From Escherichia phage JLBYU50, in the sequence record OK272470.1: a DNA stretch of 64,000 nucleotides; one strand, given 5' to 3'. A program made the translations under genes and the position numbers. Positions 48,450 to 61,523 of the stretch are shown one piece after another (the first letter of the stretch is position 1; each line of letters opens with the position of its first letter). Below the pieces are notes generated by a model that saw nothing but the letters and a program-made list of their open reading frames with translations, was not told the DNA's origin and did no database searches.

Positions 48450-48452
48450 GGT

Positions 48453-48898: not shown

Positions 48899-48904
48899 AA
48901 ACGG

Positions 48905-48957: not shown

Positions 48958-48976
48958 TTACATAGGATAAAACTTT

Positions 48977-49123: not shown

Positions 49124-49125
49124 TC

Positions 49126-49386
49126 TTGTTTTTTCTAAAAGTTTTTGATAATGTGATCGCTTTTGAACATGCTACAACGTTCGACCTGGCGAGATACGCT
49201 ATCAGGTTTAAAGATAATGTTTATCCCCGTGCTGGCGGCGGTTACACTATTTTTAATCATCGCAACGCGCAACTGACTGATGTAACTAATCCAGATCCTG
49301 GAGTGTATCGCATAGGCTGGCTACCGTCAAAAGACGCTGCAAGCATGTTTAAGGTGTGTAAACTACTAACAGAAGAGGCGAACTAG
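49126..49386 (+). CDS. Hypothetical early protein (TTG start)
   Basis: TTG start 5 nt after RBS GGAGGA. 86 aa. Confidence 0.35.
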   Translation: MFFLKVFDNVIAFEHATTFDLARYAIRFKDNVYPRAGGGYTIFNHRNAQLTDVTNPDPGVYRIGWLPSKDAASMFKVCKLLTEEAN

Positions 49387-49387
49387 C

Positions 49388-49942
49388 ATGGGGCGTGAAT
49401 ATGTGATCCAGTCCTGGGTAAAGCATGATGCTAATGATCCGCGCATAATACCAGATGACATGATCGATCACATGGTAGGGTATAGCGGGGAGCAGATAGG
49501 AAATCGAGCGGCAAAGAGCAACGGCAACACCAGGACGCGATCCGTTCGTCCTGGATGGCTGGCGAATGGTAACGCTGACATTGCAAGCGCCGCAGATCCA
49601 AGCGATGACGCTAAAAATAATCCCTTGTACAGCATTGATCCGGCTTTTAAGGTGTTGGAAGAGTATCCCGCTAAATTAGCCGCACTAGATAAGGCATACG
49701 AAGAAAAGCGCATGGCCTGGACTGTATACAACACCGCTAAAATGGTGCTAGATGCAAAACTAATTAAAGCCCAGGAGAAGATCAATAAACTTGTTACCAT
49801 AGCGCAAGAGGAAGACCAGGGCGACCAGGAGGAAGAGGAAGAAATCATGCCTACCCTGGAAGAGGAAGAGATCCAGCCATACATGCCGACGGAAGAGGAA
49901 AAAAGACAAGCCTTAAAAAATTATGAAAATTGCATTGTGTAA
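49388..49942 (+). CDS. Hypothetical protein with highly acidic C-terminal region
   Basis: 184 aa. C-terminal EEDQGDQEEEEEIMPTLEEEEIQPYMPTEEEK. Confidence 0.45.
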   Translation: MGREYVIQSWVKHDANDPRIIPDDMIDHMVGYSGEQIGNRAAKSNGNTRTRSVRPGWLANGNADIASAADPSDDAKNNPLYSIDPAFKVLEEYPAKLAALDKAYEEKRMAWTVYNTAKMVLDAKLIKAQEKINKLVTIAQEEDQGDQEEEEEIMPTLEEEEIQPYMPTEEEKRQALKNYENCIV

Positions 49943-49944
49943 GG

Positions 49945-50050
49945 GTTGACATATGCAAACAAGCCCCGTAATATGTACCACATAGAGCGGGGCAACTTCT
50001 CAAAGGTGAAATAAAAAATCAGTTGACACCTGAAATCAGTAAGCTATAAT
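49945..50050 (+). promoter_or_regulatory. Tandem early promoters 4a/4b
   Basis: TTGACA 49945-49950 with TAATAT 49969-49974; TTGACA 50023-50028 with TATAAT 50045-50050. GCCCCG/CGGGGC inverted repeat flanks the first -10. Confidence 0.5.
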
Positions 50051-50087
50051 GCTTATATAGATTGAAACATTACTAAGGAATAAAAGC

Positions 50088-50267
50088 ATGGCTATTATTG
50101 CGAAGACTGAGATCGTAGGTTTAAATTCTATCCTCCTGGCATATGAGGAAGCTATAGAAATGTATGTGGTTTCCTATGGTGATTATATCCGTGAATATAA
50201 TTCTATTGATCTAGCTTTTGAATGCTATATTCGCCAGGTAAATAAAGCATACGATGATTATCGTTAA
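50088..50267 (+). CDS. Hypothetical small early protein (59 aa)
   Basis: ATG after RBS aaggaataaaagc. Not in the ORF track (under 60 aa). Confidence 0.4.
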   Translation: MAIIAKTEIVGLNSILLAYEEAIEMYVVSYGDYIREYNSIDLAFECYIRQVNKAYDDYR

Positions 50268-50286
50268 AAGTTTTAGTCTTGTGCTA

Positions 50287-50315
50287 TTGACAACGAACGA
50301 TAGTACAAGCATAAT
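50287..50315 (+). promoter_or_regulatory. Early promoter 5 (TTGACA-17-CATAAT)
   Basis: TTGACA 50287-50292, -10 50310-50315; no palindrome. Confidence 0.45.
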
Positions 50316-50362
50316 AACTTTTATCGGGAACACTCCTAACTAATCAAAAGAGATTAAAGATT

Positions 50363-50728
50363 ATGGCTAAAAATATTAATGTTTCTGCTTATGCTACCCT
50401 GGCTAACGTTGCTAAAATTGAACTGTCCAGCATTGAAGCGGTACATATTAGCGCCCGTCGCTGGTTTCAAAAGTCTTATGGTAATACTTATTTCTCTTTG
50501 ATGGTTGACGTTGAGATCGGCGGTAAACTGATTGAAGTCGTTAACGTTCCGTTTCAATATGGTTATGGTGATCATTTCGATACCGTTGCCCTGGAAGAGT
50601 TTAGCAAGGTTATCAACCTGGAAGGTAAAGAGTTTTCAAATTATGCTTATCTTTCCCGTTTTTGCCGTGACAATGGGATCGCTGTATACAGTCATGCAAG
50701 CGATGTTAAACGTAAAAAAGATTTATAA
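50363..50728 (+). CDS. Hypothetical early protein
   Basis: 121 aa after RBS aaagagattaaag. Confidence 0.45.
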   Translation: MAKNINVSAYATLANVAKIELSSIEAVHISARRWFQKSYGNTYFSLMVDVEIGGKLIEVVNVPFQYGYGDHFDTVALEEFSKVINLEGKEFSNYAYLSRFCRDNGIAVYSHASDVKRKKDL

Positions 50729-50734
50729 AAAGCA

Positions 50735-50796
50735 TTGACAGCACGAATAAAAAGCGTAAAATGTTTCATATCAGGACGGGGGAATGGTTCCCCCGC
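50735..50796 (+). promoter_or_regulatory. Early promoter cassette 6 with palindrome CGGGGGAATGGTTCCCCCG
   Basis: TTGACA 50735-50740, -10 TAAAAT 50757-50762, palindrome about 50777-50796. Confidence 0.55.
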
Positions 50797-50816
50797 CTAT
50801 AACTAGGTATAATAAA

Positions 50817-51047
50817 ATGGCTAATATGTATATGACCGAAGTTAAAACCGTAAAAGATACTACTACCAATAAAACTACTTACTTACAGCGGATCTGCGGT
50901 GTATGGCAACGTATTAGTAAAGCAAAGTATTATAAATTAACATCATATGCTAATCGTTCGGATTCATTCAGTACTGAAATAAAAGGTAATAAAGTACACC
51001 AATACGGCACTTATTATTATTATAGCCTAGACGCGATTGCAATCTAA
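50817..51047 (+). CDS. Hypothetical early protein
   Basis: Start at MANMYMTE downstream of the palindrome. Tyr-rich C-terminus. Confidence 0.4.
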   Translation: MANMYMTEVKTVKDTTTNKTTYLQRICGVWQRISKAKYYKLTSYANRSDSFSTEIKGNKVHQYGTYYYYSLDAIAI

Positions 51048-51066
51048 GCATATTTTTAAAAAGTAC

Positions 51067-51125
51067 TTGCAAACTAGGTTTAAAGGCGTATAATGTTTTG
51101 CATAGAGAGCGGGAATAGTTCCCGC
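51067..51125 (+). promoter_or_regulatory. Early promoter cassette 7 with palindrome GCGGGAATAGTTCCCGC
   Basis: TTGCAA 51067-51072, TATAAT 51089-51094, palindrome 51109-51125. Confidence 0.6.
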
Positions 51126-51149
51126 CTCACTGAAAAAGAGATTAACATC

Positions 51150-51389
51150 ATGGCTAAATCTAAAATGTACAACGGTCACAAAAACAAAACTCATTGGAAT
51201 GTAAGCCTTTGGATTAATAACGATGAATCGTTATACTTATACGCTGTAGGTTTAATAAATGAGTGTGGCAATAAAGATAAAGCGGCGGATCTAATGTGCT
51301 ACAGATTAAAACAGGATGGGATCACTCATACACCTGATGGTTTCAAGTATAGTAAAACTGCAATCCGTGCCGCTATGGTTGGAATGTAA
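51150..51389 (+). CDS. Hypothetical early protein
   Basis: Start at MAKSKMYNGHK downstream of the palindrome. Confidence 0.45.
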   Translation: MAKSKMYNGHKNKTHWNVSLWINNDESLYLYAVGLINECGNKDKAADLMCYRLKQDGITHTPDGFKYSKTAIRAAMVGM

Positions 51390-51398
51390 TAAAAACAG

Positions 51399-51458
51399 TT
51401 GACAACGTTTTTTAATCTGATAAGATGTATCACATAGGGCGGGAAATGGTTTCCCGCC
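51399..51458 (+). promoter_or_regulatory. Early promoter cassette 8 with palindrome GGCGGGAAATGGTTTCCCGCC
   Basis: TTGACA 51399-51404, TAAGAT 51421-51426, perfect 9-3-9 palindrome 51438-51458. Confidence 0.6.
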
Positions 51459-51480
51459 AAATCAAAGAAAGGTTAACATT

Positions 51481-51708
51481 ATGGCTATCGTTATTGTTCG
51501 CGTATCCGGCACGGTTGGGATCTCCCAGGTAGTAGCAGTTATCACCGAGAAGAAAGGGGATGATCTTCACTCCTCCTTGAATAGCTGGGCGGTCGCTAAC
51601 TTTGGGCAATGGTCGAGCGTTGAGTACATCGAATCCTACCAGGTGCCAACGATTAGCCTAACCGATCTAAATGTTGATCGCTTGTTGTGCCTGGATCAAT
51701 TAAACTAA
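51481..51708 (+). CDS. Hypothetical early protein
   Basis: 75 aa after RBS aaagaaaggt. Confidence 0.45.
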   Translation: MAIVIVRVSGTVGISQVVAVITEKKGDDLHSSLNSWAVANFGQWSSVEYIESYQVPTISLTDLNVDRLLCLDQLN

Positions 51709-51726
51709 AAATAATATTGACAAGAT

Positions 51727-51783
51727 AACTAAAATCAGTAAAATGTAATGCATAGGGCGGCACTATTGCCGCCCCCTAGTGAG
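51727..51783 (+). promoter_or_regulatory. Early promoter cassette 9 with palindrome GGCGGCACTATTGCCGCC
   Basis: TTGACA 51727-51732, TAAAAT 51749-51754, palindrome 51766-51783. Confidence 0.6.
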
Positions 51784-51796
51784 AGAGATTATCAAA

Positions 51797-52012
51797 ATGG
51801 CTAATATCCGCACACTGTTAAAAAATGCAAGTCAAGTTTTATTTTCAGATGACGAGTATTTCAACAAAGACATTACAGGCGTGAAAAATTTAAAAGACGT
51901 GAAGGATGTTATCGGTATCCGTGGATCTTTACGTAAAGGTGACATATACGGTAACAAGGTGCAATATAAATTGTCAAAAGATTATGATTTTACTTTGACA
52001 ATTATTTCATAA
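51797..52012 (+). CDS. Hypothetical early protein
   Basis: Start at MANIRTLLKN after RBS gagagag. Confidence 0.45.
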   Translation: MANIRTLLKNASQVLFSDDEYFNKDITGVKNLKDVKDVIGIRGSLRKGDIYGNKVQYKLSKDYDFTLTIIS

Positions 52013-52018
52013 AACCGC

Positions 52019-52079
52019 TTGCAATACTGCAAAAATAAAGTAAACTGTATTCATTAAGGCGGTGGAATAGCCCACCGCC
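52019..52079 (+). promoter_or_regulatory. Early promoter cassette 10 with palindrome GGCGGTGGAATAGCCCACCGCC
   Basis: TTGCAA 52019-52024, TAAACT 52041-52046, palindrome 52058-52079. Confidence 0.55.
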
Positions 52080-52102
52080 TAACAAAGAGAAGAGGAAACA
52101 TC

Positions 52103-52273
52103 ATGATCACTTTCGCCACCCGTGAAGCCGCTCGCAACGTTGCACGTAAAGTTAACGCCGCCAACCTGGGCGCTACGCTTAAAGCCCCGGTGAAAGATGA
52201 ATCAGGAAAATGGATCTTTCCTGGTCTGCGTCACGCTGATAAGCTGGGAACATTAACGTTAAAAAACAAATAA
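52103..52273 (+). CDS. Hypothetical small early protein (56 aa)
   Basis: ATG after RBS agaggaaaca. Not in the ORF track (under 60 aa). Confidence 0.4.
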   Translation: MITFATREAARNVARKVNAANLGATLKAPVKDESGKWIFPGLRHADKLGTLTLKNK

Positions 52274-52280
52274 TATCCGT

Positions 52281-52339
52281 TTGACAGTAGCATCATTTAT
52301 AAGTAAAGTAACAACAACGGCGGGAAATGGTTTCCCGCC
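52281..52339 (+). promoter_or_regulatory. Early promoter cassette 11 with palindrome GGCGGGAAATGGTTTCCCGCC
   Basis: TTGACA 52281-52286, TAAAGT 52304-52309, palindrome 52319-52339 (identical to cassettes 2 and 8). Confidence 0.6.
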
Positions 52340-52359
52340 ATCAATAAAGAGATAAGATT

Positions 52360-52719
52360 ATGAAATCAGTAAAAGCAATTAAAACTTACATTGTGTCGGC
52401 TATTTCTTTTGATGGTACTACAACCGAAAAAGAAAAGATCACCGAACTGATGCGCCGTTTTAACTCTGAATACTGGTATCCCGATAATCAAAAACGTTAC
52501 AATTATAACGTGATCAAGGCAATAGCCTCATGGTTACAAGGTTTACCGTCAGAAGTCAATATTGCTTTTGATTATAACGAGATCGATCACTTGTTAATTG
52601 AATGGAAGTACATAAAAGAAACAAGCAAAGAAACAACCGTTACCCGTGAGCGGGAAAATTATTGGTTATATATTGCAAGCATGATCGTAACCCTGGCAAA
52701 ACAGCATAACGTGGCGTAA
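52360..52719 (+). CDS. Hypothetical early protein
   Basis: 119 aa after RBS aaagagataag. Confidence 0.45.
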   Translation: MKSVKAIKTYIVSAISFDGTTTEKEKITELMRRFNSEYWYPDNQKRYNYNVIKAIASWLQGLPSEVNIAFDYNEIDHLLIEWKYIKETSKETTVTRERENYWLYIASMIVTLAKQHNVA

Positions 52720-52734
52720 TTAAGAGGAAAAAAC

Positions 52735-52872
52735 ATGAACGCATCACAGCAGATCGAAAAATTCAACCGCAACAAAGCGCGTAAAAATTGGAATGAAGAG
52801 ATCACCAAGAAAGGCGATAAGCGGAACAAAACAAAAAGAGATCGCAGCACAAAAAGACACTGGAACGAATAA
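52735..52872 (+). CDS. Hypothetical small highly basic protein (45 aa)
   Basis: ATG after RBS aagaggaaaaaac. Lys/Arg-rich. Followed by terminator 52877-52900. Confidence 0.3.
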   Translation: MNASQQIEKFNRNKARKNWNEEITKKGDKRNKTKRDRSTKRHWNE

Positions 52873-52876
52873 CAAA

Positions 52877-52900
52877 AAGGGCGCAATAAGCGCCCTTTTA
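52877..52900 (+). terminator. Rho-independent terminator-like hairpin
   Basis: AAGGGCGC-AATAA-GCGCCCTT followed by TTTA. Confidence 0.5.
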
Positions 52901-52990
52901 GCTTATATAGAGGCTTGTTACCCATAGGCAATGGTAACGCCAGGGCAAGCCTATAAATCAACGTTAGACAGCTTTACAGGAGCTTTAAAA

Positions 52991-53173
52991 ATGAAATTAG
53001 ACGAAATAAGCAAGGCACTAGCCCAGGGGCAAAGGTTATGCGCCCGATATCGTGATCAATATGGCTTCATAACTAGCGGCGTGATCCTGGGGATTGAAGG
53101 TAATAAAATTTTTATTGACACGTTGAAAAACGTTGTATATAGTGACAATATAATCTCAATAAAACATATATGA
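52991..53173 (+). CDS. Hypothetical small protein
   Basis: Start at MKLDEISKAL after RBS acaggag. Confidence 0.35.
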   Translation: MKLDEISKALAQGQRLCARYRDQYGFITSGVILGIEGNKIFIDTLKNVVYSDNIISIKHI

Positions 53174-53181
53174 GGCAAGAA

Positions 53182-53583
53182 ATGAAAAAATTATTGATCG
53201 CTGGTTTAATCTCTTTTGGCATGGTTGGAACATCTAGCGCGGCGATATCCTCCACAGTAGCAGAATTAAGCGCCGTTGATGCAATGGAAAACGTCATGAT
53301 CATTAATAACGCGATCCCCGATGAAATCATGGAGGATTCACACATGATCGCTTATGGTGCTGTTACACAATTAACGGCAAAAATAGATAAATCTATTGTT
53401 AATGGCTTAAATGAAGATGTACCATGTGAAATTATTACCAGTGTGCTAACGACTCAAAATTTTACGCCGTGGTTAAAAAGTATTCAAAAGGTACACAGCA
53501 CCGCCGCAGATCGTAGCAATGAAAAACTAGTGTCAGCACTTGCAACGTATACCCTAGCAAAATGCACCGAAATAAAAGATTGA
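53182..53583 (+). CDS. Secreted hypothetical protein
   Basis: Start at MKKLLIAGLISFGMVGTSSAA (signal peptide). Confidence 0.45.
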   Translation: MKKLLIAGLISFGMVGTSSAAISSTVAELSAVDAMENVMIINNAIPDEIMEDSHMIAYGAVTQLTAKIDKSIVNGLNEDVPCEIITSVLTTQNFTPWLKSIQKVHSTAADRSNEKLVSALATYTLAKCTEIKD

Positions 53584-53607
53584 CAATATAGAAAGCACGT
53601 TATAAGA
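53580..53607 (+). promoter_or_regulatory. Promoter 12 (TTGACA-16-TATAAG)
   Basis: TTGACA 53580-53585 overlapping the upstream stop, -10 at 53602-53607. Confidence 0.4.
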
Positions 53608-53630
53608 TACACACAACAAAGGAGAACTAC

Positions 53631-53933
53631 ATGAACGGCATAGCTAAAACGTTTTTTCTTTTTTCTGGTGTAAATGATCCATCAATAAAAGTCGATAGTG
53701 TAAAAGAAAACAATACTATCACCGCTAAATTGTTTCAAGATGAAACAAATAACGTGCTAATCATTAATCTTAAAGAAATAACGAAAGGTTATTATACTAT
53801 TGCTTACCATGCGATCTATCATGCTGGTACTAGCGAGGAAGTGCAAACAAGCAACAACGAAAGCGCGGCGCTACCTGGTGATCTGGTGTTGGGCGTTATC
53901 AGTTTAATTGTCAATGATTTTTTTAAGGAGTAA
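53631..53933 (+). CDS. Hypothetical protein
   Basis: 100 aa after RBS aaaggagaac. Confidence 0.4.
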   Translation: MNGIAKTFFLFSGVNDPSIKVDSVKENNTITAKLFQDETNNVLIINLKEITKGYYTIAYHAIYHAGTSEEVQTSNNESAALPGDLVLGVISLIVNDFFKE

Positions 53934-54116
53934 AACCATGCCCTATTTACATTTATTTTTCGGTATCTTATTGACAGGATCTTTTTTCTTCTGTATGCTT
54001 GTTTCTATTGTAAACCACGTTTTAAGACATTAAGGAAACAGCATGAAAATTATTCCCGTACAGTATAGCGTAATAAATCCAGCATATGAGGAAGGAAGGA
54101 AAACAAGCATGGCTTT

Positions 54117-54461
54117 ATGTTGTATTACTACTATAGCCATGTTATTATACATTGTGTTTTAATAGGTTTTATAGTTGTACGCTTTACAGGCTTTACAATT
54201 TTTTTGTTATGCTTTAAAATATATCTTGAAAACGGCAAAGGCCGCAAACAAAAGGGTAAAACTTATGCGCTGAATCATGCGTTTATCGGCAAGGTTGAAT
54301 ATAGAGAAATGATCGACGAGGAAACAGGGCAAGATTTTAGCGATTATGTTTATATTCGTTCAGAAACATTAGCCGAACGTTTGATCGAGAAAATGAAAGC
54401 AAAAAATAAAATTAATTTAGCTCATTGGATTGATATAACAAACGATTCTGCTTATCAGTAA
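54117..54461 (+). CDS. Hypothetical protein with N-terminal hydrophobic segment (start uncertain)
   Basis: 114 aa ORF ending just before terminator 54478-54504. Overlaps an alternative-frame 39-aa ORF (54043-54162) that has a better RBS. Confidence 0.35.
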   Translation: MLYYYYSHVIIHCVLIGFIVVRFTGFTIFLLCFKIYLENGKGRKQKGKTYALNHAFIGKVEYREMIDEETGQDFSDYVYIRSETLAERLIEKMKAKNKINLAHWIDITNDSAYQ

Positions 54462-54477
54462 ATAACATTTCATACCA

Positions 54478-54504
54478 GGGCGCACAAAGCGCCCTTTCTT
54501 TTTA
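54478..54504 (+). terminator. Rho-independent terminator
   Basis: AGGGCGC-ACAAA-GCGCCCT followed by TTCTTTTT. Confidence 0.6.
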
Positions 54505-54707
54505 CCTAAATAAAGATGATAGCTTTTACCTATCAAAAACGTTCACCGAAAAAAGTGAATAGATCGCGGTATCGAGCTAATCAAGGAGCAGATGAACAAC
54601 CATACCATGAAGATCATAAGGCGCTTACAGCGTGTTTTAGACCGCTTATTTTTAATTTCTTCATGCAACTATCTGGCAAAAACAGCCTTTTTCTCATCTT
54701 TCCTCTT

Positions 54708-54780
54708 AAATGATAATCATTCTTATTTATAGCTGATTATTTATGCAATAAACTGCATAATGCAATAATGATAATCATTC
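54708..54780. promoter_or_regulatory. Two Fur-box-like sites
   Basis: AAATGATAATCATTC at 54708-54722 and AATAATGATAATCATTC at 54764-54780. Each contains the 13-nt core AATGATAATCATT of the GATAATGATAATCATTATC consensus. Confidence 0.45.
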
Positions 54781-55154
54781 TTAACTTATGACCATCTAAC
54801 CTATAAAATAATAAGTTATCTAACTAAATTAAAGCTAACTATTTCACCTTTATTTATAACTTACTGTTACTATCTCATTGATAACCTTATATTAAACAAC
54901 AATAACTAATATAAATCATTATTAAGCTAACTATAATCTATCTAACCTTTAAAACTATAACTATAATCTATCTAATTGTTGCACAAAGTAACTATTAAAT
55001 TGTTAGTAACATTACTAAATAATTAATATCCTATTTATTTATGATCTAATCTTTACCTTCCTATTTATCACCTAACTAATCATTTCATACAATAATTATA
55101 ACAAGAAATATAATTCGCAAGCGTATCATTAGCAGCCTATGCCGGACACATAGG

Positions 55155-55303
55155 CGGCTAATAATAACGCAACTACACACCCCACATAATAACCATCACC
55201 GATAGTTATTATTTGTGCTTATGTAGCTTGCAACAATTGCAAGCGCAACAATATACATGGTATATTGTATCCCTTACATTGTTGCGGTGCGTTATTATTA
55301 GCT
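55155..55303. repeat. Nested inverted repeats in AT-rich non-coding region
   Basis: GCTAATAATAACGC (about 55156-55169) pairs with GCGTTATTATTAGC (about 55285-55298). Inner CGCAACAAT...ATTGTTGCG and CAATATAC-ATG-GTATATTG palindromes. Confidence 0.5.
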
Positions 55304-55602
55304 AATGTTTGGAACATTGGCTATAATATAAGCTATCCAATAATAAACATAGTGGATAATGACACTGATGATCATAATGCGCCACCTTCCAGGGGGCGCT
55401 ATGTGAACACAAAAAATCTTTCTTGTCAAGAAAAATATTACCATTATTGCGCAAAATTATTTATATATGAATAGATGGTTTTTCATACTATTATTGTTAT
55501 TTGTCGGGCATAACTATCCCTATTTGTTGAGCCTACTTTCTTAAAAGCGCAATAAATCAGAATTATCTTGATTTTTAGTGAGTTTTATAGTATAGAAAAT
55601 AT

Positions 55603-55621
55603 GCAAATGATAATCATTATC
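55603..55621. promoter_or_regulatory. Near-consensus Fur box
   Basis: GCAAATGATAATCATTATC matches GATAATGATAATCATTATC at 17 of 19 positions. Confidence 0.5.
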
Positions 55622-55788
55622 AGCTATCTTCCACGGGTGGCACTATTTCACGCCAGATCATTTCATTTGGCAAGGTGTATATAGATGTTTAGACTTGCCA
55701 AGCCATTGATTTACTTAGAATTTATCTGTTTTGTTGTGAGTAGTACCTTTCTTGCTCAGAAAATAATCAAAAGTCTTATAAGTCATTG

Positions 55789-55820
55789 AATGATAATGCA
55801 AATGATAATTATTCTCATTG
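55789..55820. promoter_or_regulatory. Overlapping Fur-box-like repeats
   Basis: GAATGATAATGCAAATGATAATTATTCTCATTG: two AATGATAAT half-sites followed by TCTCATT, the partner of the 47.4 kb boxes. Confidence 0.4.
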
Positions 55821-56111
55821 ATATTTGAGGGGGACGGTCGGCAGAAATCGGGGGCGCTGAAAATCGCGTTAAGCACCTCTCGCAAGCGAGCAGTATTTTG
55901 CGGCAAGTTATTGATATTATTGACTTTACGCTTATGAAAAGGGGGCGTGTCGAAATAAATCGGGTATACCGGAAAATTTTTGTGGCATAGATATTTATTT
56001 GTCTATATTATGTACAAAGGGGTGTGTTAAAAATAATAGGTATATATAGAATAATTGATAGGGAAATCCTATACTAAATCCTTCATTAATGATGTTCCTA
56101 TGTTGCTGTTC

Positions 56112-56140
56112 TTGTAACAGATGAAAAGATGCTATATGAT
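56112..56140 (+). promoter_or_regulatory. Candidate promoter (TTGTAA-17-TATGAT)
   Basis: -35 56112-56117, -10 56135-56140, upstream of RBS aaggag and ATG 56178. Confidence 0.35.
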
Positions 56141-56177
56141 GTGTGGCATGAAACGTAAATTTATAAAGGAGTCTGAT

Positions 56178-56543
56178 ATGTGTGTTCCTCTTAGCAGTCC
56201 ACTGCTGTTAGAATTTTACAAAGCATGGATGGAAGATCATTCCTCAATGCATCGTGAGAATGTTGGTTTGTGTATTTGCCTTATGGATTATCTGGCAACC
56301 ACTATGTCAAAGAAAAAGCCTACGCAAGAAGATATAGAACATTTCAAAATGGTTCGTAGCAAAACGCTGGAAGAGATGAAATGGCAATTCACGTGTGCTG
56401 GGTTATCCTCCTTCCTGCCCTTTAATGATGATCTTCTGTGTTATGAAGATGAAGGTAAGAAACATTCTTGCCATACTAACCAAGGAAGATTGCAGTGGGT
56501 GAAAGACAGAATCGAAGATGCAAATAATGCTTGCATTGAATAG
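56178..56543 (+). CDS. Hypothetical protein, paralog family A (member 1)
   Basis: Start at MCVPLSS after RBS aaggag. Shares LL.FY..W......GLC.CL.D.L ... PFN ... RL.WV.DRI with 58467 and 59459 ORFs. Confidence 0.45.
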   Translation: MCVPLSSPLLLEFYKAWMEDHSSMHRENVGLCICLMDYLATTMSKKKPTQEDIEHFKMVRSKTLEEMKWQFTCAGLSSFLPFNDDLLCYEDEGKKHSCHTNQGRLQWVKDRIEDANNACIE

Positions 56544-56613
56544 AAATGTCTGTACACTGTGTTCCATAAGATATGCAATATCGCGCATAACAAACTACTA
56601 ATGAGAGGTGTAA

Positions 56614-57072
56614 ATGAAAACTGTATCTTTGTATCTTGCTAACACGGAGCGTGTACATAATCTTGTAAAAGAATGCGGTGTGAGTGTTCAATTTAACATA
56701 GGAAAGCCTTCCGTGGTGACAGGCAGTGAGATGTGTGTTATTGATTTCCTCAATGAATATTTTCGTGGAAAACCTATTGCTCGTCACTTCATTCAAGAAA
56801 TGCGAGATGTACTACAGGCTTATGAATTCTACCCAGAAATTTGTGAACGCTATGAAACTATTCTTAGTTCTGTAGAAGATCCAGATACTAGTGAAACAGG
56901 TGTTTCCCACTTACTGTGGATGTTGAATGAAATTCAGGATGGGTGTAATGGTATGTCTGAAACCAAACGCCATCGTTGGCTAGGCTATATTCAGGGTGTT
57001 ATGGTTATGAAAAACCTTATTACCGTTGATGATGAACGTAATGCTACACGCCCCGTCTTTAATGGAGCATAA
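56614..57072 (+). CDS. Hypothetical protein
   Basis: 152 aa after RBS gagagg. Confidence 0.45.
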   Translation: MKTVSLYLANTERVHNLVKECGVSVQFNIGKPSVVTGSEMCVIDFLNEYFRGKPIARHFIQEMRDVLQAYEFYPEICERYETILSSVEDPDTSETGVSHLLWMLNEIQDGCNGMSETKRHRWLGYIQGVMVMKNLITVDDERNATRPVFNGA

Positions 57073-57073
57073 C

Positions 57074-57289
57074 ATGAAAAGCATTCAGGTGTGTATTGAA
57101 AATAATTGTGGTTATCTGGGGTTGACACATGTTGCTTTCCCTCTTATGTTAGATGCTGATATCGCTTACAGCGGAGTTGCTTATGTGTCATTCAAGACAA
57201 TGAGCCAAGTACCTGGCTGGAAGTGGGAAGTAGTTGATGTTGTTGAAGGAGAAGATTATGTTTTCCTTCCACACGAATATACTGTTTAA
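57074..57289 (+). CDS. Hypothetical small protein
   Basis: Start at MKSIQVCIEN after RBS ggag. Confidence 0.4.
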   Translation: MKSIQVCIENNCGYLGLTHVAFPLMLDADIAYSGVAYVSFKTMSQVPGWKWEVVDVVEGEDYVFLPHEYTV

Positions 57290-57304
57290 AGAGAGGAAAA
57301 GAAG

Positions 57305-57481
57305 ATGGATAAACAAACTACTGTGTACTTAGTAACAAAGAATACCCCAGGCTGGAGCCAATGCAGCACTGTACCTTACAAGATCTGTGCAACATTAGAA
57401 CTAGCACAACGCGCAGAAGCAGAAGTGGATGCCATGCAACACAGCTATGGTGAGATCATTCCTTTTACTCTTGAACAATAA
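57305..57481 (+). CDS. Hypothetical small protein (58 aa)
   Basis: ATG after RBS agagaggaaaag. Not in the ORF track (under 60 aa). Confidence 0.35.
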   Translation: MDKQTTVYLVTKNTPGWSQCSTVPYKICATLELAQRAEAEVDAMQHSYGEIIPFTLEQ

Positions 57482-57492
57482 GGAGTTGTGTA

Positions 57493-57945
57493 ATGTTTGA
57501 AATTGGTAAAGTGTATCGTTTTAAAAACCCATCCTATATCCGTAAGTTTGCTAACATGTCTGAGTGCAATAGCAGGATTGCTTCTTTCTTAGGTGATTCC
57601 TATTTCCGTGTATTAGATGTGGATGATTGGTATGGTGTCACTGCTTTGCAATCCTTAGCAGGAGAACAAGAAATTATCGCTCAAAATGAAGGAGACTTTC
57701 TTCAGTGTTACACGTTGCTTGCAAAAAGTGAATTTGAGTATTTTGTAGAAGTCTTAGAGGAAGCACCAAAAAGTAAACACGAAGAGAAATACCTGCTTGT
57801 AGTGGATGGAGTTCCGATCATGGAAACTATCTCCCGTGAGGAAGTTGAAAAAGAGGCGAAACGTTACAAGCTGGATCGTACACAGAGTGTAGTTGAAGTC
57901 TATTCTCTTGTTGGTGTTGCAGATATTAGTGTGAACATCGTATAA
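57493..57945 (+). CDS. Hypothetical protein
   Basis: 150 aa after RBS aaggag. Confidence 0.45.
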   Translation: MFEIGKVYRFKNPSYIRKFANMSECNSRIASFLGDSYFRVLDVDDWYGVTALQSLAGEQEIIAQNEGDFLQCYTLLAKSEFEYFVEVLEEAPKSKHEEKYLLVVDGVPIMETISREEVEKEAKRYKLDRTQSVVEVYSLVGVADISVNIV

Positions 57946-57948
57946 TAT

Positions 57949-58161
57949 ATGTGTAATGACAGATACATTCTTCGTGTATCTGATAAGTCTCCTATGTTTG
58001 ACTGGCGGGGCTGGTGGCTACTAGCTCCGATGCAAGGTCTGACAGACGTGGAAAAGGAGGCTTATGTGTATACAAAAGAAGAGATAGAAGATAGTCTTTA
58101 TTTGACAGATAACATTAAGAATGGTATCTTTGAGTGTAAATTGAAAGGAGAGGAAGAATGA
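57949..58161 (+). CDS. Hypothetical small protein
   Basis: 70 aa, tightly packed. Confidence 0.4.
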   Translation: MCNDRYILRVSDKSPMFDWRGWWLLAPMQGLTDVEKEAYVYTKEEIEDSLYLTDNIKNGIFECKLKGEEE

Positions 58162-58457
58162 CTGTTACAGAAAAACTGCGTTGTATTGCAAAGCAAAGTG
58201 GAGAAGGTTTATGGTTTCCTATTGATGAAGTTATTCAGGACTGTTATGACCAGGCTAAGACTGGCAAATACTCCAAAGCATTTAAACCATCTGTTTTCGG
58301 TTTGGATGACTATCCGACAAATGAACAAGCAAAGAAACGCCAAGTTGATTTGATTGATCTTGCTATGGAAGCACTACGAGAGCGTGGGCTTAGTAAGGTG
58401 TATGCTTTAAACACCAAAGAGGGTTTTGTAGATTCAGTGATCGTAGATTGGCATTAA
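58158..58457 (+). CDS. Hypothetical protein
   Basis: 99 aa, ATGA overlap with upstream gene, RBS aaggagagg. Confidence 0.45.
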   Translation: MTVTEKLRCIAKQSGEGLWFPIDEVIQDCYDQAKTGKYSKAFKPSVFGLDDYPTNEQAKKRQVDLIDLAMEALRERGLSKVYALNTKEGFVDSVIVDWH

Positions 58458-58466
58458 GGAGAAGCC

Positions 58467-58835
58467 ATGCAAGAGAATAATAAAGTGTGTAACATGAAAA
58501 GCAGCCCCTATTTGCTACAATTTTATGAATGGTGGTTAGAACAAGAAGATACAAACTTTAGCAAAAAGCATTATGGTCTTTGCACGTGTCTTGTAGACTT
58601 CTTGTACAATATTGCTTGGATAAAAGATGTTGAGAATGTAGCAAAGCTCCAATCCTCTGTACGAGAGGAAATGAAGGAACAGTTTAAGAAAGCAGGTTTG
58701 AACCATTTACACCCATTTAATACAGATTTCTCACATTACTTTACGGAAACAGAGCTAGGCATTGCACACCTTAATAAAGAACGTGTACAATGGGTGATTG
58801 ATCGTATTCGTGATATGGAGGAATATAATGGTTAA
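58467..58835 (+). CDS. Hypothetical protein, paralog family A (member 2)
   Basis: 122 aa after RBS aaggagaag. Motifs LLQFYEWW, GLCTCLVDFL, HPFN, RVQWVIDRI. Confidence 0.45.
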   Translation: MQENNKVCNMKSSPYLLQFYEWWLEQEDTNFSKKHYGLCTCLVDFLYNIAWIKDVENVAKLQSSVREEMKEQFKKAGLNHLHPFNTDFSHYFTETELGIAHLNKERVQWVIDRIRDMEEYNG

Positions 58836-59046
58836 GTTTAAAACTTTCTGTGCAATCACTGTTTGTCTTATTCTTGCATACGTGTTATTCTCTGGTATCG
58901 TTCGTTTAGGTGAGTATATGGCAAGAGAAGCTCGTGAAAGCGAAGCTAAAAAAGAACAGTGTATTGTGTTAAAGCATCAAAGGGATGCTGAAAAGTTTCT
59001 CGCACTTGATTGCAATCGTTATGTATCTTATCAAATGTATGAGTAA
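58828..59046 (+). CDS. Small membrane-anchored protein, paralog family B (member 1)
   Basis: Start at MVKFKTF after RBS ggagg. TM helix then EQCIVLKHQRDAEKFL, paralogous to 63540-63764. Confidence 0.4.
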   Translation: MVKFKTFCAITVCLILAYVLFSGIVRLGEYMAREARESEAKKEQCIVLKHQRDAEKFLALDCNRYVSYQMYE

Positions 59047-59055
59047 GGAGGATTT

Positions 59056-59280
59056 ATGGTAAAACGTCTGGAATGGGATGCGTGTACTGCTCACGCTTGT
59101 CACTGTGATATTGTGGAAGATCCTAATGGAGAAATGGTGTATTATGAGGATTACGAAGCATTGCATAATGCTGTGATCGCTTTACTGGATGATATTAGCT
59201 CACGCTATCCAGGACAACAGTTTACGTGTCCACATATCCAACTATTAGCCAAACTTACGGAGTATCCAAGTGTTTCATAA
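59056..59280 (+). CDS. Hypothetical small protein
   Basis: 74 aa after RBS aaggagg. Confidence 0.4.
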   Translation: MVKRLEWDACTAHACHCDIVEDPNGEMVYYEDYEALHNAVIALLDDISSRYPGQQFTCPHIQLLAKLTEYPSVS

Positions 59281-59458
59281 TATGGGTGTCCCTGAACAAC
59301 TCCTCTTTATCGTAGGATTAGTAGGCTTACTGGCGGCTGGCGCTAAAGCCGCTTCTCACACGCATCACATAATGTTAAGATTTCTATTCCTACTCCCTTC
59401 TATCCTCGTACTATTAGTCATACTGATCGATAACATTTTGCACAATTAAGGAGAGGTT

Positions 59459-60043
59459 ATGAGTAAAATTATACCAAGCAGTTATGAATTATTGCAGTTT
59501 TATGTATATTATATAGACTGGGTTAATAGATCGAATGTTAAAGACAATGCGATGTTTAGTAAAAACATATGTTTAACAGAAAGTATCTTCCGTTACTGGC
59601 ACACAGGTAGAAAGTGTACACACAGTGAAGCTATGCGCATTGTAGGAGAATATCTGGAGCAATTGCAAAAAGCAGAGCTACCTGTCCTTCACCCATTCAA
59701 CGAATCTAAAGAAGAATTAGAACAAGAATGTAGGGAAGGTAAGTGCCATTTGAATGAAAAACGTATAGAATGGGTGAGGCAACGTTTAGCCGATGCAGGG
59801 AATCCTCCTAGTGACTCTGACTATACGTGGTATGATGTAGAGGGTTTAGTTCAAGGTTTTGAGGCTTGTGCTATAGATAATACCAACTTTGCCAAAGTTT
59901 TATGCGAGGCTTATGACCTGGCAGATAAAATCCGAAATCACGGATGGAAACAAGAGCATAAAGAATCATATGAACGCCTTGACAAGATTTTCAAACAGAT
60001 CTATTCTAACCACAAGAAGATGTTCCAAATGGAGGATGTGTAA
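59459..60043 (+). CDS. Hypothetical protein, paralog family A (member 3, extended)
   Basis: 194 aa after RBS aaggagagg. Motifs LLQFYVYYIDW, HPFN, RIEWVRQRL. Confidence 0.45.
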   Translation: MSKIIPSSYELLQFYVYYIDWVNRSNVKDNAMFSKNICLTESIFRYWHTGRKCTHSEAMRIVGEYLEQLQKAELPVLHPFNESKEELEQECREGKCHLNEKRIEWVRQRLADAGNPPSDSDYTWYDVEGLVQGFEACAIDNTNFAKVLCEAYDLADKIRNHGWKQEHKESYERLDKIFKQIYSNHKKMFQMEDV

Positions 60044-60729
60044 TGAAAGAGATTATGTTTGAAGGTCATCGTTACGAAGTTCCAGATAATGCGAACTTCA
60101 TGGCTCGTGATATCACTGGAGATGTGTTCTGGTTTGAAGATGAACCTGTATTTTCTTCGAACAAACACTGGTTTTCACAACAATCTTCTTCGGAAAATAT
60201 GACTTTTGGTTATGTAGAACCTAAAGTCCGTTGCAGAGCAGCTTCTTCTTTGGTAAAAATTGCGCAGGATGATCAAGAAAATACTCCAGATGTTGTTAGT
60301 GCACTACTGAAGTACATTGCAGAACTTGAAAATAAAATTAAAGAAGCAGAAACTAAGGTGAAAGCACGATCAGCAATCATTGAATCTATGTCTGAACGTA
60401 TTTTAGAACTAGAAGATTTGTGTGGAGAGGCTTATCAAGTGGTTGGTGCACTGGCTTGTGAAGCAGAAATGTTTGAAACTTCAGAACAAGTTTCACATAT
60501 GTTAGATAATTTGAGTGAATGTAAAATGATTCATGATGATGTATTGCCATTTTGTTGCAATGTTAACAAAACAGAGCAAACAGAAGATTCAGAAACAGTT
60601 TATGTTCCGCTAATGTGTGTTCCAGATCATCTAAAAGGTGTATTCTCTTATAAATGGTCACTGTTGAGCGTTAATAATTGTGGTGAAAACTATTCTGCTA
60701 ACATTGAATTGCTAAAACACGTTAAATAA
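60043..60729 (+). CDS. Hypothetical protein
   Basis: 228 aa, ATG overlapping upstream stop. Confidence 0.45.
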   Translation: MKEIMFEGHRYEVPDNANFMARDITGDVFWFEDEPVFSSNKHWFSQQSSSENMTFGYVEPKVRCRAASSLVKIAQDDQENTPDVVSALLKYIAELENKIKEAETKVKARSAIIESMSERILELEDLCGEAYQVVGALACEAEMFETSEQVSHMLDNLSECKMIHDDVLPFCCNVNKTEQTEDSETVYVPLMCVPDHLKGVFSYKWSLLSVNNCGENYSANIELLKHVK

Positions 60730-60739
60730 GGAGAGTAAG

Positions 60740-61144
60740 ATGTGGTCTGTTAAAATCAAATATAATGCGCAGTATTATGGTGGAAAACCTTACGAAGTTG
60801 TTATTTGTGATTGTATCTCTAAAGAAGTTGCACAGCTTTGTGGCGCTGGTGTTAGTGAAGCTATGAACAAAATGCATAATTCTACTGTGCGTTTCCTGGA
60901 TCGGGATATTCCAGAAGATGTAAATGACTATGGTTACGAAGTTATTTACAGTGAAGGTAAGAAGCTCTCTATTGAAGATGCACTTAAAGCACTACCTGCT
61001 ATGTGCAACCCGACACCAGAAGCAGTTAAAGAGATTTTACCAGAATCCAACCCCGATGAATATGCTTCTATGGTTGCTTCAGATATGTGGAATCTCTGTC
61101 GAGAAACTATGATTAAAAATCTTGTGGAAATGGCACATGAGTAA
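60740..61144 (+). CDS. Hypothetical protein
   Basis: 134 aa after RBS aaggagag. Confidence 0.45.
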   Translation: MWSVKIKYNAQYYGGKPYEVVICDCISKEVAQLCGAGVSEAMNKMHNSTVRFLDRDIPEDVNDYGYEVIYSEGKKLSIEDALKALPAMCNPTPEAVKEILPESNPDEYASMVASDMWNLCRETMIKNLVEMAHE

Positions 61145-61355
61145 AACGCACTTTATACATCCGTTTGATCCAAAGAACAAGGCGGTTATACACCGCCGTT
61201 GGACTGAAACGCGCATTACAAAATGTCCTGTGCCAGCAGCACAGGAATATAACAAAACATATAAAGCAGAATTTGTGGAGTATACCTTTGTGAATAACAA
61301 AGGGAAGGAGGTTTATGTTCCAGAATACTGCCTTTGGATAAAATGGGAGGAATAA
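61122..61355 (+). CDS. Hypothetical protein
   Basis: 77 aa ORF overlapping upstream 3' end. Confidence 0.4.
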   Translation: MWKWHMSKTHFIHPFDPKNKAVIHRRWTETRITKCPVPAAQEYNKTYKAEFVEYTFVNNKGKEVYVPEYCLWIKWEE

Positions 61356-61522
61356 TGCAAGCATTTTTTATCGACAAGTTCAACAAAAATATGAACACGT
61401 GGATGGCAACATTCACTATGCAATTTGCGTCGTTTAAAGAAGCTCAAGAATGGTGCGATCAACACAAGGATTTTGATTTTTACTATCAAGTAAATCTAAA
61501 TCTCTCTTCAGAGGAGAAATAA
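61355..61522 (+). CDS. Hypothetical small protein
   Basis: Start at MQAFFIDKF (TAATG overlap) after RBS gggagg. Confidence 0.35.
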   Translation: MQAFFIDKFNKNMNTWMATFTMQFASFKEAQEWCDQHKDFDFYYQVNLNLSSEEK

Positions 61523-61523
61523 T

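Follow-up and report, generated by a model that had tools for sequence, protein, structure and literature searches.

A probable genome-end control region with a conserved folded element in a phi92-like virulent myovirus

Packaging with short exact terminal repeats has been described as the least understood packaging strategy, in which duplication of the repeat is itself poorly understood (PMC13595956). In Justusliebigvirus BME3, a 342-bp terminal repeat was determined with PhageTerm (PMC12210895). In phage phi92 (NC_023693, features PHI92_DTR-L and PHI92_DTR-R) the repeat is annotated at both genome ends and is placed, as in other Stephanstirmvirinae, between the gp248 homologue and the first early genes. 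Records of the phi92 type annotate the repeat only, and not the cut motif, recognition module, structured element and Fur-like sites that are described below. The concatemer junctions of T7 and T3 also contain a short non-coding exact repeat that is cut at fixed sites by terminase, with an inverted-repeat structure a few hundred bp inside the right genome end; Chung, Nardone and Hinkle are said to have proposed in 1990 a fold-back hairpin left of the repeat in junctions of this type. The locus studied here resembles these junctions in both respects, with putative cut positions, but belongs to a 148-kb myovirus that uses host RNA polymerase promoters, carries a 180-nt hairpin plus four-way junction instead of a simple fold-back, and has no T7-type promoter or pause site. 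A third system for comparison is the piracy of lambda and P2 cos sites by P4 and the cos-type PICIs, where small integrative elements that lack a terminase have taken over a copy of a compact terminase site. A similar arrangement was found for the present locus, but the putative helper is a virulent phage packaging by terminal repeats, and the islands, as putative satellites, copy just the right-boundary module.

The window analysed is a stretch of 64,000 nucleotides from Escherichia phage JLBYU50 (OK272470.1), a phi92-like virulent myovirus of the genus Justusliebigvirus (Stephanstirmvirinae). The original prediction had pointed to a long AT-rich non-coding region with direct and nested inverted repeats and a GC-rich island, for which a replication origin, a packaging or terminal-repeat boundary and a structured non-coding RNA were considered; all of these features were located where it had placed them. 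They lie in a conserved gap of ~1.7 kb (54462-56177), with the last right-end gene on one side and the first early genes on the other. The right limit of this gap was set at 56177, and not at 56110, because the first early gene is likely to start at ATG 56178, which is preceded by AAGGAG. The leader of this gene (55988-56177, + strand) includes GGTGTnAAAAATAAnnGGTATATATnGnATAATTGATAGG (55988-56079), a block with conservation across genera, together with a sigma70-like site, TTGTAA-17-TATGAT (56112-56140). At the opposite side, an intrinsic terminator on the + strand (GGGCGC-loop-GCGCCC plus a T-run, 54477-54505) was conserved in 12 of 12 aligned phages and was the only terminator-like site within 54000-56700. 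This terminator would close the upstream operon, which ends with the phi92 gp248 homologue (54117-54461), and would shield the gap from read-through. Strong sigma70 promoters (at least 10/12) were absent from the gap, whereas 18 were found on the + strand between 48 and 64 kb, densely placed on both sides of it. A scan of the window for tRNA and tmRNA genes gave none. We consider it probable that this region is the genome-end (concatemer-junction) control region of the phage, and the fact that the gap is free of genes, lacks strong promoters and is shielded by a terminator would be explained by its acting in cis.

The terminal-repeat boundary that had been proposed among the candidate functions was borne out by homology. 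The 343-bp repeat annotated in phi92, which is also annotated in UAB_1, maps to 55530-55871 (342 bp here), at the same position and with the same boundary heptamers, with 98.5% identity to both the left and the right phi92 repeats and 97.4% to those of UAB_1. By this homology, 55530-55871 is a short direct terminal repeat. The window has a single collapsed copy, so that its boundaries rest on homology and on the annotations of other groups; virion DNA would be expected to have one copy at each end. Both boundaries sit in a heptamer, GTTR^AGC, that is conserved across genera. The left one, GTTG^AGC (55526-55532, + strand; putative cut 55529/55530), coincides with the start of the phi92, UAB_1 and Schickermooser repeats and is accompanied by TGTTGAGC, invariant in 12 phages. 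The right heptamer (55868-55874; putative cut 55871/55872) coincides with the end of the same three repeats. Schickermooser, a Phapecoctavirus whose record comes from another laboratory, has an exact terminal repeat of 329 bp whose boundaries fall within these two heptamers, and the record of 3A1_SA_NWU ends at ...ATGTTG, that is, in the left heptamer. The phi92, UAB_1, Schickermooser and 3A1_SA_NWU sequences all start or end at GTTG^AGC or GTTA^AGC, and in the records of VEcB, PHB05 and W22 the right cut falls at position 343. The heptamers and their flanks are invariant across genera, whereas in the gap as a whole identity is only ~70-75% and extends over a third of the length. With 8 occurrences of GTTRAGC in the window, the heptamer alone cannot confer specificity.

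The GC-rich island was confirmed (58% GC at 55830-55900, against 21% at 54790-55120) and was found to straddle the right boundary. Here a right-boundary module was delimited on the + strand (55817-55895), with the structure TTGATATTTG...GGGACGGTCGGCAGAAATCGGGG...GCGTTA^AGC...TCTCGCAAGCGAGC. The sequence TCGCGTTAAGCA within it was conserved in all genera, and conservation across genera extended beyond the cut motif itself, over the stretch TTGATATTTG...TCGCGTTAAGCA that spans the cut. About 80 bp over the right cut recurred in integrative elements of E. coli, with identities of 66/87 and 62/85. A match was present in 517 of 5426 E. coli genomes (~10% of complete genomes). The islands, 9-13 kb in length, have genes for a tyrosine integrase, a serine resolvase, an O-like Rep (with iterons) and a capsid protein of the gpE type, and lack a terminase; the copy of the cut site adjoins the resolvase gene. 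When the island site was compared with 50,697 phage records, only Stephanstirmvirinae were matched. This specificity makes the module a probable terminase recognition and cleavage site, and the pattern of island matches is that expected of a pirated packaging site, suggesting satellite piracy. Neither the structured element (searched with its covariance model, R1) nor Fur-like boxes were present in the islands, and tblastn of the island proteins against the window gave no match. Should island packaging proceed through this common site, recognition would require neither the structured element nor the Fur boxes. No report of satellites of Stephanstirmvirinae was found in the literature.

The nested inverted repeats were confirmed in all their parts. 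The outer arms GCTAATAATAACGCA (55157-55171) and TGCGTTATTATTAGC (55288-55302) are complementary at 15 of 15 positions with 116 nt between them; the inner pair is formed by CGCAACAAT (55244-55252) and ATTGTTGCG (55278-55286), and the inner palindrome is CAATATAC-ATG-GTATATTG (55249-55267). An inverted repeat of 15 nt within 200 nt was reached once when the gap was shuffled 300 times with dinucleotides preserved. These repeats are part of a conserved structured element (55123-55303) that consists of a hairpin and a four-way junction, as supported by covariation and by the covariance model R1. Hairpin H1 (55135-55141 with 55149-55155, loop CCGGACA) stands outside the 15-bp closing stem made by the outer arms, which encloses all the remaining pairings: a CTAC/GTAG pairing (55173-55176 with 55223-55226), H2 (55189-55197 with 55201-55209), H3 (55227-55233 with 55237-55243) and H4, formed by the inner pair, with the inner palindrome being genus-specific. 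The fold was kept in all Stephanstirmvirinae copies examined (45 pairs, 98.7% of cells paired). Compensatory changes on both sides were seen in 13 of the 45 pairs, compared with at most 3 in slid controls and 0 of 500 shuffles. Model R1 recovered one copy in the window with 172.8 bits, and no further copies in the rest of the window, in phage 4MG or in the more distant loci with gp248 homologues. One IMG/VR pattern hit (L017) was dropped as a chance match. Secondary-structure prediction on both strands, the check suggested originally, gave folding z-scores of -7.0, -9.6 and -8.5; the most stable fold was that of the minus-strand RNA (-81.6 kcal/mol). In size (150-200 nt), in having several hairpins and in lying close to a genome end or origin, where such elements act in cis, the structure is comparable to rolling-circle single-strand origins, the G4/phiX primosome sites, herpesvirus palindromic origins and the phi29 pRNA, but it has no sequence or model match to them.

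A four-copy family, AATGATAAT(C/T)ATT (54709, 54767, 55606 and 55801), had been overlooked in the original prediction. Its members belong to the four to five palindromes in the gap that resemble Fur boxes, when scored as matches to the 19-bp Fur consensus GATAATGATAATCATTATC or as 7-1-7 palindromes. Sites with at most 4 mismatches numbered 4 in the gap against 0.09 expected, and core 13-mers 4 against 0 expected; in the loci of 15 relatives, all Fur-like sites fell within the gap. Boxes 1 and 2 (54706-54782) have the cores AATGATAATCATT at 54709-54721 and 54767-54779; the site at 54764-54782 matches the consensus at 16 of 19 positions, and box 1 is conserved as AATGATAAYCATT in Phapecoctavirus. 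A weak Fur-like, GATC-containing repeat, TGATGATCATAATGCGC, followed by a GC hairpin (GCGCC...GGCGC), occupies 55355-55403, is conserved only within the genus and resembles 54608-54624. Inside the terminal repeat, a conserved TTGATT hexamer, 17 nt, TATAGA and box 3 follow each other on the + strand (55568-55621). Box 3, TGATAATCATTATCA, is a perfect 7-1-7 palindrome (15 bp), and 55603-55621 matches the consensus at 17 of 19 positions. Also inside the repeat and on the + strand, the conserved TAAGTYATTGAAT is followed by an array of GATAAT-type hexamers that constitutes box 4 (55786-55826), with three overlapping sites of 4-5 mismatches each and a hexamer number that varies between genera. The consensus matches at 55798 and 55355 are 15/19 each. 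The entC gene of E. coli is regulated by Fur, and the Fur operator of entCEBAH (fepB-entC intergenic region) shares GAAAATAT-AAATGATAATCATTAT with box 3 and its 5' flank (55595-55620) at 24 of 26 positions; when box 3 was compared with 5426 E. coli genomes, this operator ranked first in 5406. The phage candidate site differs from it in its setting, a terminal repeat in which the neighbouring promoter-like hexamers are weak. Among them, TTGATT and TTGAAT are conserved, with poor -10 elements (TATAGA misses the last T) and, in phAPEC8, a different distance between TTGAAT and TATTCT. The candidate promoters beside the Fur boxes and the structured element were not conserved between genera. A second cluster of the motif, which phAPEC8 shares, was located 7 kb away (47393-47456), ahead of another conserved non-coding element. 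The AATGATAATCATT palindromes, two of them inside the repeat, most likely serve as binding sites for host Fur. In the literature, no report was found of Fur boxes at the termini of virulent phages.

The direct repeat described at the left of the structured element was verified as well: TAACTATAATCTATCTAA occurs exactly twice (54928-54945 and 54958-54975), and an 18-nt direct repeat was reached in 0 of 300 dinucleotide-preserving shuffles of the gap. It is part of an AT-rich, G-depleted tract of short direct repeats (54790-55120; 21% GC, with 14 G against 56 C on the + strand), in which ATCTAAC-type motifs and a variable-number TAATCATTTCATAC unit (at ~55070-55090) are also found. The same compositional bias was observed in phAPEC8, phiWec186 and FKP3, with different repeat units.

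From these elements, the following course of events at the genome ends can be proposed. Replicating concatemers would have one repeat copy between successive genomes. The terminase would recognise the module of ~80 bp on the right edge of the repeat, where it would cut at GTTA^AGC (55871/55872), the second boundary would be cut at the related heptamer GTTG^AGC (55529/55530), and the repeat would be regenerated after cutting, so that both ends of virion DNA carry a copy. The element at 55123-55303, 227 bp left of the left cut, appears to be a secondary structure under selection that folds most likely in DNA, on a single strand exposed by replication or end processing. Its role could be in initiating replication next to the AT-rich tract of repeats; alternatively, it could help to regenerate the terminal repeat, the function that has been proposed for the fold-back hairpin in T7 concatemers. 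Fur might act at its sites as an operator tying rightward transcription from the repeat to iron status, or the sites might be architectural. A wider interpretation, in which the ~80-bp module is a phi92-like packaging signal copied by undescribed E. coli elements (satellites) and the entC-type Fur operators feed iron status or Fur titration into early transcription or end processing, is offered as a tentative possibility.

One question is whether the gap contains small protein genes that escaped annotation. Several GenBank records (Nernie, VivaForever, FKP3) list 9-11 'hypothetical proteins' in it, but it is empty in the curated records of phi92, Paula, inny and phAPEC8, and indels that are not multiples of three are common. 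Out of 14 ORFs of at least 30 aa, 13 were broken in at least one of five close relatives, most of them even in relatives ~94% identical across the region, and all 14 were broken in other genera. The absence of a convincing ORF thus held for 54733-56177, where no ORF of at least 30 aa was intact outside the genus, and coding potential beyond 54732 was rejected because reading frames are not conserved in relatives. It did not hold at the left edge: the ORF at 54592-54732 (+ strand, 46 aa), which has a ribosome-binding site (AAGGAG-N5-ATG) and whose 3' end overlaps Fur-like box 1, was intact in 5 of 5 close relatives tested and absent from Phapecoctavirus and FKP3. Its codon differences (8 synonymous against 10 non-synonymous) are weak evidence, and it may be a small gene specific to the genus. 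As an account of the gap, unannotated small genes are highly improbable. It is also unlikely, if less so, that the AATGATAATCATT family binds a phage protein (the small terminase or an early repressor, for example) and resembles Fur boxes by coincidence. The four to five copies do flank the repeat and lie inside it, like the R sites of lambda cosB, and conservation at box 4 reaches past the Fur-like core into its flanks; against this, box 3 is a perfect Fur palindrome whose match to the entC operator takes in the 5' flank, the islands copy the cut site without the motif, and the cluster at 47393-47456 fits a transcription factor better than a packaging protein.

With binding by host Fur retained as the preferred reading of the palindromes, two further proposals concern the left part of the gap. 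It is rather doubtful that the nested repeats give rise, from one strand or the other, to a structured non-coding RNA of ~180 nt. The structural half of this original suggestion is supported by covariation across genera; the evidence leans against the RNA half. Strong covariation and a multi-branch fold are typical of RNAs, but covariation does not separate RNA from single-stranded DNA. Pairing cells over 26 distinct copies comprised 1143 Watson-Crick, 7 G-U and 13 A-C on the + strand, so that the share of G-U cells was 0.6% for the + strand and 1.1% for the minus strand; exchanges of GC for CG and of AU for UA were numerous in the stems. The excess of A-C over G-U cells on the + strand, four of the A-C cells being independent and equal to G-U pairs in a minus-strand RNA, together with the very stable predicted folds, above all on the minus strand, makes a minus-strand RNA possible. 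A strand call from this asymmetry (13 against 7 cells, ~4 against 1 independent events) was discarded as too weak. A perfect TATAAT (55109-55114) lies immediately upstream in this genus, but neither it nor the minus-strand candidates are conserved in other genera, no conserved promoter flanked the element on either side across genera, no terminator followed it on either strand, and strong TTGACA promoters, dense on either side of the gap, are missing from it. In Rfam, nothing in the window reached the gathering score, and the region gave, at E up to 5, only unrelated families (0.53 and 1). The H2 hairpin is flipped between relatives (CATC-ACC-GATG against CATC-GGT-GATG), which points to DNA-level events. 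If there were an RNA, it might function in packaging (like the phi29 pRNA), regulation or counter-defence, and its promoter and terminator context is the gap in the proposal. A DNA-level cis element is tentatively favoured over an RNA because pairing is almost purely Watson-Crick, the loop is flipped and a conserved flanking promoter is missing. The replication origin, which had also been among the initial candidates, would occupy the left two-thirds of the gap (54700-55310) and is compatible with the terminal-repeat reading; we regard it as doubtful. In such an origin, factor sites, easily melted AT-rich repeats and palindromes that extrude or fold once unwound would lead to helicase-primase loading. 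Palindromes serve as oriL and oriS in herpesviruses, and in T7 the genome ends contain secondary origins. Consistent with an origin, the 331-bp tract of 21% GC is strand-biased, a property that other genera keep without keeping the sequence; it adjoins the conserved palindromic structure and is shielded from transcription, and the E. coli islands have their own Rep protein and iteron origin beside the copy of the cut site. On the other hand, the repeat units are wholly different between genera, which is unusual for iterons with a conserved initiator. No initiator gene was found adjacent, and the turns of GC skew in the window track gene orientation and not 54700-55310, so no informative skew signal was obtained. 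The sole DnaA-box-like site (AGTGGATAA, 55349) is weak and not conserved; this reading and that of an IHF site were dropped on these grounds.

The terminal repeat itself was already known, whereas there appears to be no earlier description of the cut motif, the fold, the island copies or the Fur sites. For annotation, the numerous 'hypothetical proteins' placed in the gap in several GenBank records are probably spurious, and assemblies of Stephanstirmvirinae can be oriented by a simple rule, namely to begin at the AGC that follows TGTTG. For the study of packaging, the phi92-like family offers one cut motif common to both boundaries, a compact recognition module whose borders are marked by the island copies, and a conserved folded element 227 bp from the cut, with stems that lend themselves to disruption and repair. 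If true, the presence of Fur operators in a virulent phage's terminal repeat would be an unusual wiring of a lytic phage into the host iron regulon, and would be relevant in the iron-limited gut. Mobilisation, should it occur, would make the islands the first satellites attributed to the large, virulent Stephanstirmvirinae coliphages; these phages are widely used in therapy cocktails, and such mobilisation, if true, would bear on transduction risk and phage resistance.

The 1.8 kb around the finding were ~94-95% identical, over their full length, to many Justusliebigvirus phages of E. coli, a genus with phi92 as type phage that has been placed in the subfamily Stephanstirmvirinae. The homologous stretch is a gap without annotation in the well-curated records of inny, Paula and phi92; in JLBYU50 it separates the phi92 gp248 homologue (54117-54461) from the first small early genes and ends at position 56177. 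A ~1.5-kb gap occupies the same position in the sister genus Phapecoctavirus (phAPEC8, ZCKP1, phiWec186 and AV125), and a "non-coding" box has likewise been reported for rV5, of the related Vequintavirinae (PMC3606486). GenBank records labelled Campylobacter phage A150/A145/C3/A110a (MG065639/45/56/89), Pseudomonas phage PsgM04F (OR584014) and Acinetobacter phage ABPW7 (OP562383) also match E. coli Justusliebigvirus or Phapecoctavirus at the gap region, the Campylobacter-labelled ones with 94-95% identity over the whole region and the other two through shared conserved blocks. The hosts given for these records seem questionable, and contaminating coliphages may be the source.

The original prediction of an AT-rich, ORF-poor region with direct and nested inverted repeats and a GC-rich island was confirmed as a whole. 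All of its repeats were found in their places; in 300 shuffles that kept the composition of the gap, an exact direct repeat of 18 nt never arose and a perfect inverted repeat of 15 nt arose once, and the island contains 58% GC versus 21% in the AT-rich tract. The absence of a convincing ORF held for most of the gap, where every ORF of at least 30 aa is lost outside the genus and most are already disrupted in close relatives. A possible exception is a 46-aa ORF at the left edge (54592-54732), which has a good ribosome-binding site (AAGGAG-N5-ATG) and whose first half shows few substitutions among close relatives, all of them synonymous. This ORF, which is missing from Phapecoctavirus and overlaps a Fur-box-like palindrome (box 1) with its last codons, may be a small genus-specific gene.

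Among the functions originally proposed, a terminal-repeat boundary or packaging site was the best supported. Direct terminal repeats of 343 bp are annotated at the left and right ends of the phi92 and Salmonella phage UAB_1 records, and positions 55530-55871 match them with 98.5% and 97.4% identity, respectively. A 342-bp repeat was obtained for Justusliebigvirus BME3 by independent PhageTerm analysis (PMC12210895), and a recent paper describes direct terminal repeats at Stephanstirmvirinae genome ends (PMC12695924). The two boundaries lie in related heptamers (left, TGTTG^AGC; right, CGTTA^AGC) that are invariant across genera in an alignment of 12 phage gaps. The record of Schickermooser (Phapecoctavirus) carries an exact 329-bp terminal repeat with boundaries at the same positions of the same heptamers, that of 3A1_SA_NWU terminates in ...ATGTTG, and the right cut is base 343 in several Justusliebigvirus records that start at the repeat. 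By homology, we infer that the JLBYU50 ends lie at the boundaries of 55530-55871. The 64-kb window contains 8 copies of the boundary heptamer, and therefore recognition requires more than this motif. In Klebsiella phage FKP3 (PP895363), the homologue of 55665-55983 was found twice near the record end, 500 bp apart (3768-4085 and 4268-4431 of the extracted locus), which suggests that its terminal repeat is longer (~500 bp) or that the assembly has left the repeat partly uncollapsed.

When 5,426 complete E. coli genomes were searched with the terminal repeat and the gap, the only matches were short and fell into two overlapping classes, present in a total of 517 genomes; the first covers 55814-55853 (121 genomes) and the second 55847-55891, across the right cut. 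The matches examined lie in integrative elements (islands). In ATCC 8739, a ~9-kb island (L034, 13200-22400) is located at thiM, flanked by duplicated TPP riboswitches, and encodes a tyrosine integrase, GmrSD, HTH proteins and a serine recombinase. In RM9131 (L035, 1-10200, and L037, 32800-39500) and NCTC10973 (L036), islands of ~12-13 kb split srsR and encode a tyrosine integrase, a gpE-type major capsid protein (PF03864), a 610-aa tape-measure-like protein, a "baseplate" protein, a serine resolvase and an O-like replication initiator adjoining ~2 kb of iterons; no terminase or portal is annotated in this type. Both types have in common a module of small genes, an O-like Rep protein, ~2 kb of iterons and tandem 21-mers, a serine resolvase and the copy of the phage right-end site, which sits directly after the resolvase stop codon in all three islands. 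Neither the structured element formed by the nested inverted repeats nor the Fur-like boxes were found in them.

End-to-end alignment gave the island site as TTGATATTTG-N24-TCGGGG-N13-GCGTTRAGC-N6-TYGCAA, with 66/87 and 62/85 identities to the right-boundary module at 55817-55895. The middle of the module is common to one island type and its right part to the other, a mosaic pattern expected for functionally equivalent sites that recombine. When 50,697 phage records were searched, the island site matched Stephanstirmvirinae only (61 records), with Klebsiella relatives matching over up to 90% of its length. Because of these island copies and of this restriction to Stephanstirmvirinae, there is strong indirect evidence that 55817-55895 would be the terminase recognition and cleavage site.

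Between genera, the best-conserved part of the gap is 55091-55248 (77-80%). The structured element was aligned in 14 non-identical copies from GenBank Justusliebigvirus, Phapecoctavirus, Klebsiella and Citrobacter relatives and IMG/VR contigs. RNAalifold returned a hairpin (H1) and, after it, a domain in which the predicted 15-bp stem is the closing stem and encloses CTAC/GTAG and hairpins H2, H3 and H4. On this structure 98.7% of 630 cells were paired and both sides had changed at 13 pairs, versus 0-3 when partners were slid by 1-3 columns; none of 500 column shuffles reached the observed values. The H2 stem is kept despite near-total sequence change (ATAACCATC/GATGGTTAT, GGATAATC/GATTATCC, GAAACTATT/AATAGTTTC), and the CAATATAC-ATG-GTATATTG palindrome is a Justusliebigvirus-specific insertion inside H4. 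With a covariance model, the window yielded a single hit (55123-55303, 172.8 bits). All relatives and nine metagenomic contigs have the element at full length and one more contig has it truncated, and 4MG, more distant loci and the islands gave no hit. Secondary-structure prediction for both strands, as originally called for, gave folds far stabler than shuffles (z -7.0 for plus-strand and -9.6 for minus-strand RNA), as did folding as DNA (z -8.5).

Covariation cannot by itself separate RNA from DNA. The pair cells of 26 distinct copies comprised 1143 Watson-Crick, 7 G-U and 13 A-C combinations, and many stem changes were GC<->CG or AU<->UA swaps; structured RNAs, as a rule, tolerate G-U far more. 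This argues for DNA, as does H2: compared with arall and Phapecoctavirus, JLBYU50 has this hairpin exactly flipped (loop ACC versus GGT, identical stem), a hallmark of DNA hairpins that have undergone template switching or inversion. The A-C cells become G-U pairs on the minus strand, whose RNA also gives the most stable predicted fold, and both points speak for an RNA. The transcriptional context favours DNA. On the plus strand of 48000-64000, small ORFs are preceded about every 800 bp by near-consensus sigma70 promoters (18 in all; TTGACA, 16-17 nt, TAnnnT, at least 10/12), as is usual in early regions transcribed by host polymerase; the gap has no such site and is the only long promoter-less stretch there, a strong conserved terminator (54477-54505) blocks read-through into it, and no conserved promoter or terminator flanks the element on either side. 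Taken together, we lean towards folding as DNA, and an RNA appears possible though rather unlikely.

The element lies 227 bp left of the left cut, and therefore each genome has one copy, ~570 bp from the right end. It is directly preceded by the AT-rich tract (331 bp, 21% GC, 14 G versus 56 C, with short direct repeats), whose composition, not its sequence, is kept in other genera. By its position, this layout fits a replication origin; it would also fit a fold-back structure in terminal-repeat regeneration, such as has reportedly been proposed for T7. Just upstream of the element, a ~16-bp unit (TAATCATTTCATAC..., 55070-55090) is a variable-number tandem repeat, with one copy in the window, two in arall, Paula and phi92 and three in inny; it is the "repeat_region" of the inny and arall records (L001, 3683-3729; L002, 3679-3712).

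The gap also contains a four-copy palindrome family, AATGATAAT[C/T]ATT, which is the E. coli Fur box core. Allowing up to 3 mismatches to GATAATGATAATCATTATC, 4 sites were found in the 64-kb window versus 0.03 expected, and allowing up to 4, 4 sites in the gap versus 0.09 expected from composition-matched shuffles. Such sites were confined to the gap in the loci of 15 relatives, with none in the coding DNA on either side; boxes 1, 3 and 4 occupy conserved positions in the different genera, and five Fur-like boxes lie in the FKP3 gap. Box 3 (55603-55621) matches 17/19 consensus positions, includes a perfect TGATAATCATTATCA and, with its 5' flank, shares 24/26 bases with the E. coli fepB-entC intergenic operator, its best match in 5406 of 5426 genomes. 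The terminal repeat includes boxes 3 and 4, and a conserved TTGATT or TTGAAT hexamer precedes each of them by 12-30 bp. However, the accompanying -10 elements are poor, and at box 4 the spacing is variable, by one hexamer unit.

Another non-coding region, 1.2 kb long (46957-48176; 235 matching records, zero Rfam matches), contains three TTTGAAAATGAAAAGTTCAA-type direct repeats ~70 bp apart (around 47207, 47277 and 47353) and then three tandem Fur-box-like motifs (47393-47456; AATGAGAATCATT twice and the palindrome AAATGAGAATTTTCTCATTT), also present in phAPEC8. These precede a conserved GC-rich, ORF-poor element; 47436-48156 is ~92% identical in phAPEC8, far over the genome average, and the core (47557-47682) shows 72-85% identity in many Cronobacter, Klebsiella, Pectobacterium, Salmonella and other phages. 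The region may be a Fur-controlled conserved non-coding RNA. Given this second box cluster, a transcription factor is a likelier ligand than a packaging protein, and Fur probably binds the predicted boxes. Candidate roles are iron-dependent control of transcripts leaving the repeat, Fur titration by replicating genomes, and DNA bending near the cut. No report of Fur-like boxes of this kind was found in the searchable literature.

The terminal repeat was already known from its annotation in phi92. New are the cut motif common to both boundaries, the delimited right-boundary module with its E. coli island copies, the fold of the nested inverted repeats, with its support from covariation, and the putative Fur operators of entC type. 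Homology and conservation support the proposed mechanism to their own extent; cleavage, Fur binding, the folding molecule and island mobilisation are predictions. The thiM and srsR islands look like an undescribed satellite family, and the shared site provides a lead that they may be satellites of Stephanstirmvirinae, a virulent phage group.
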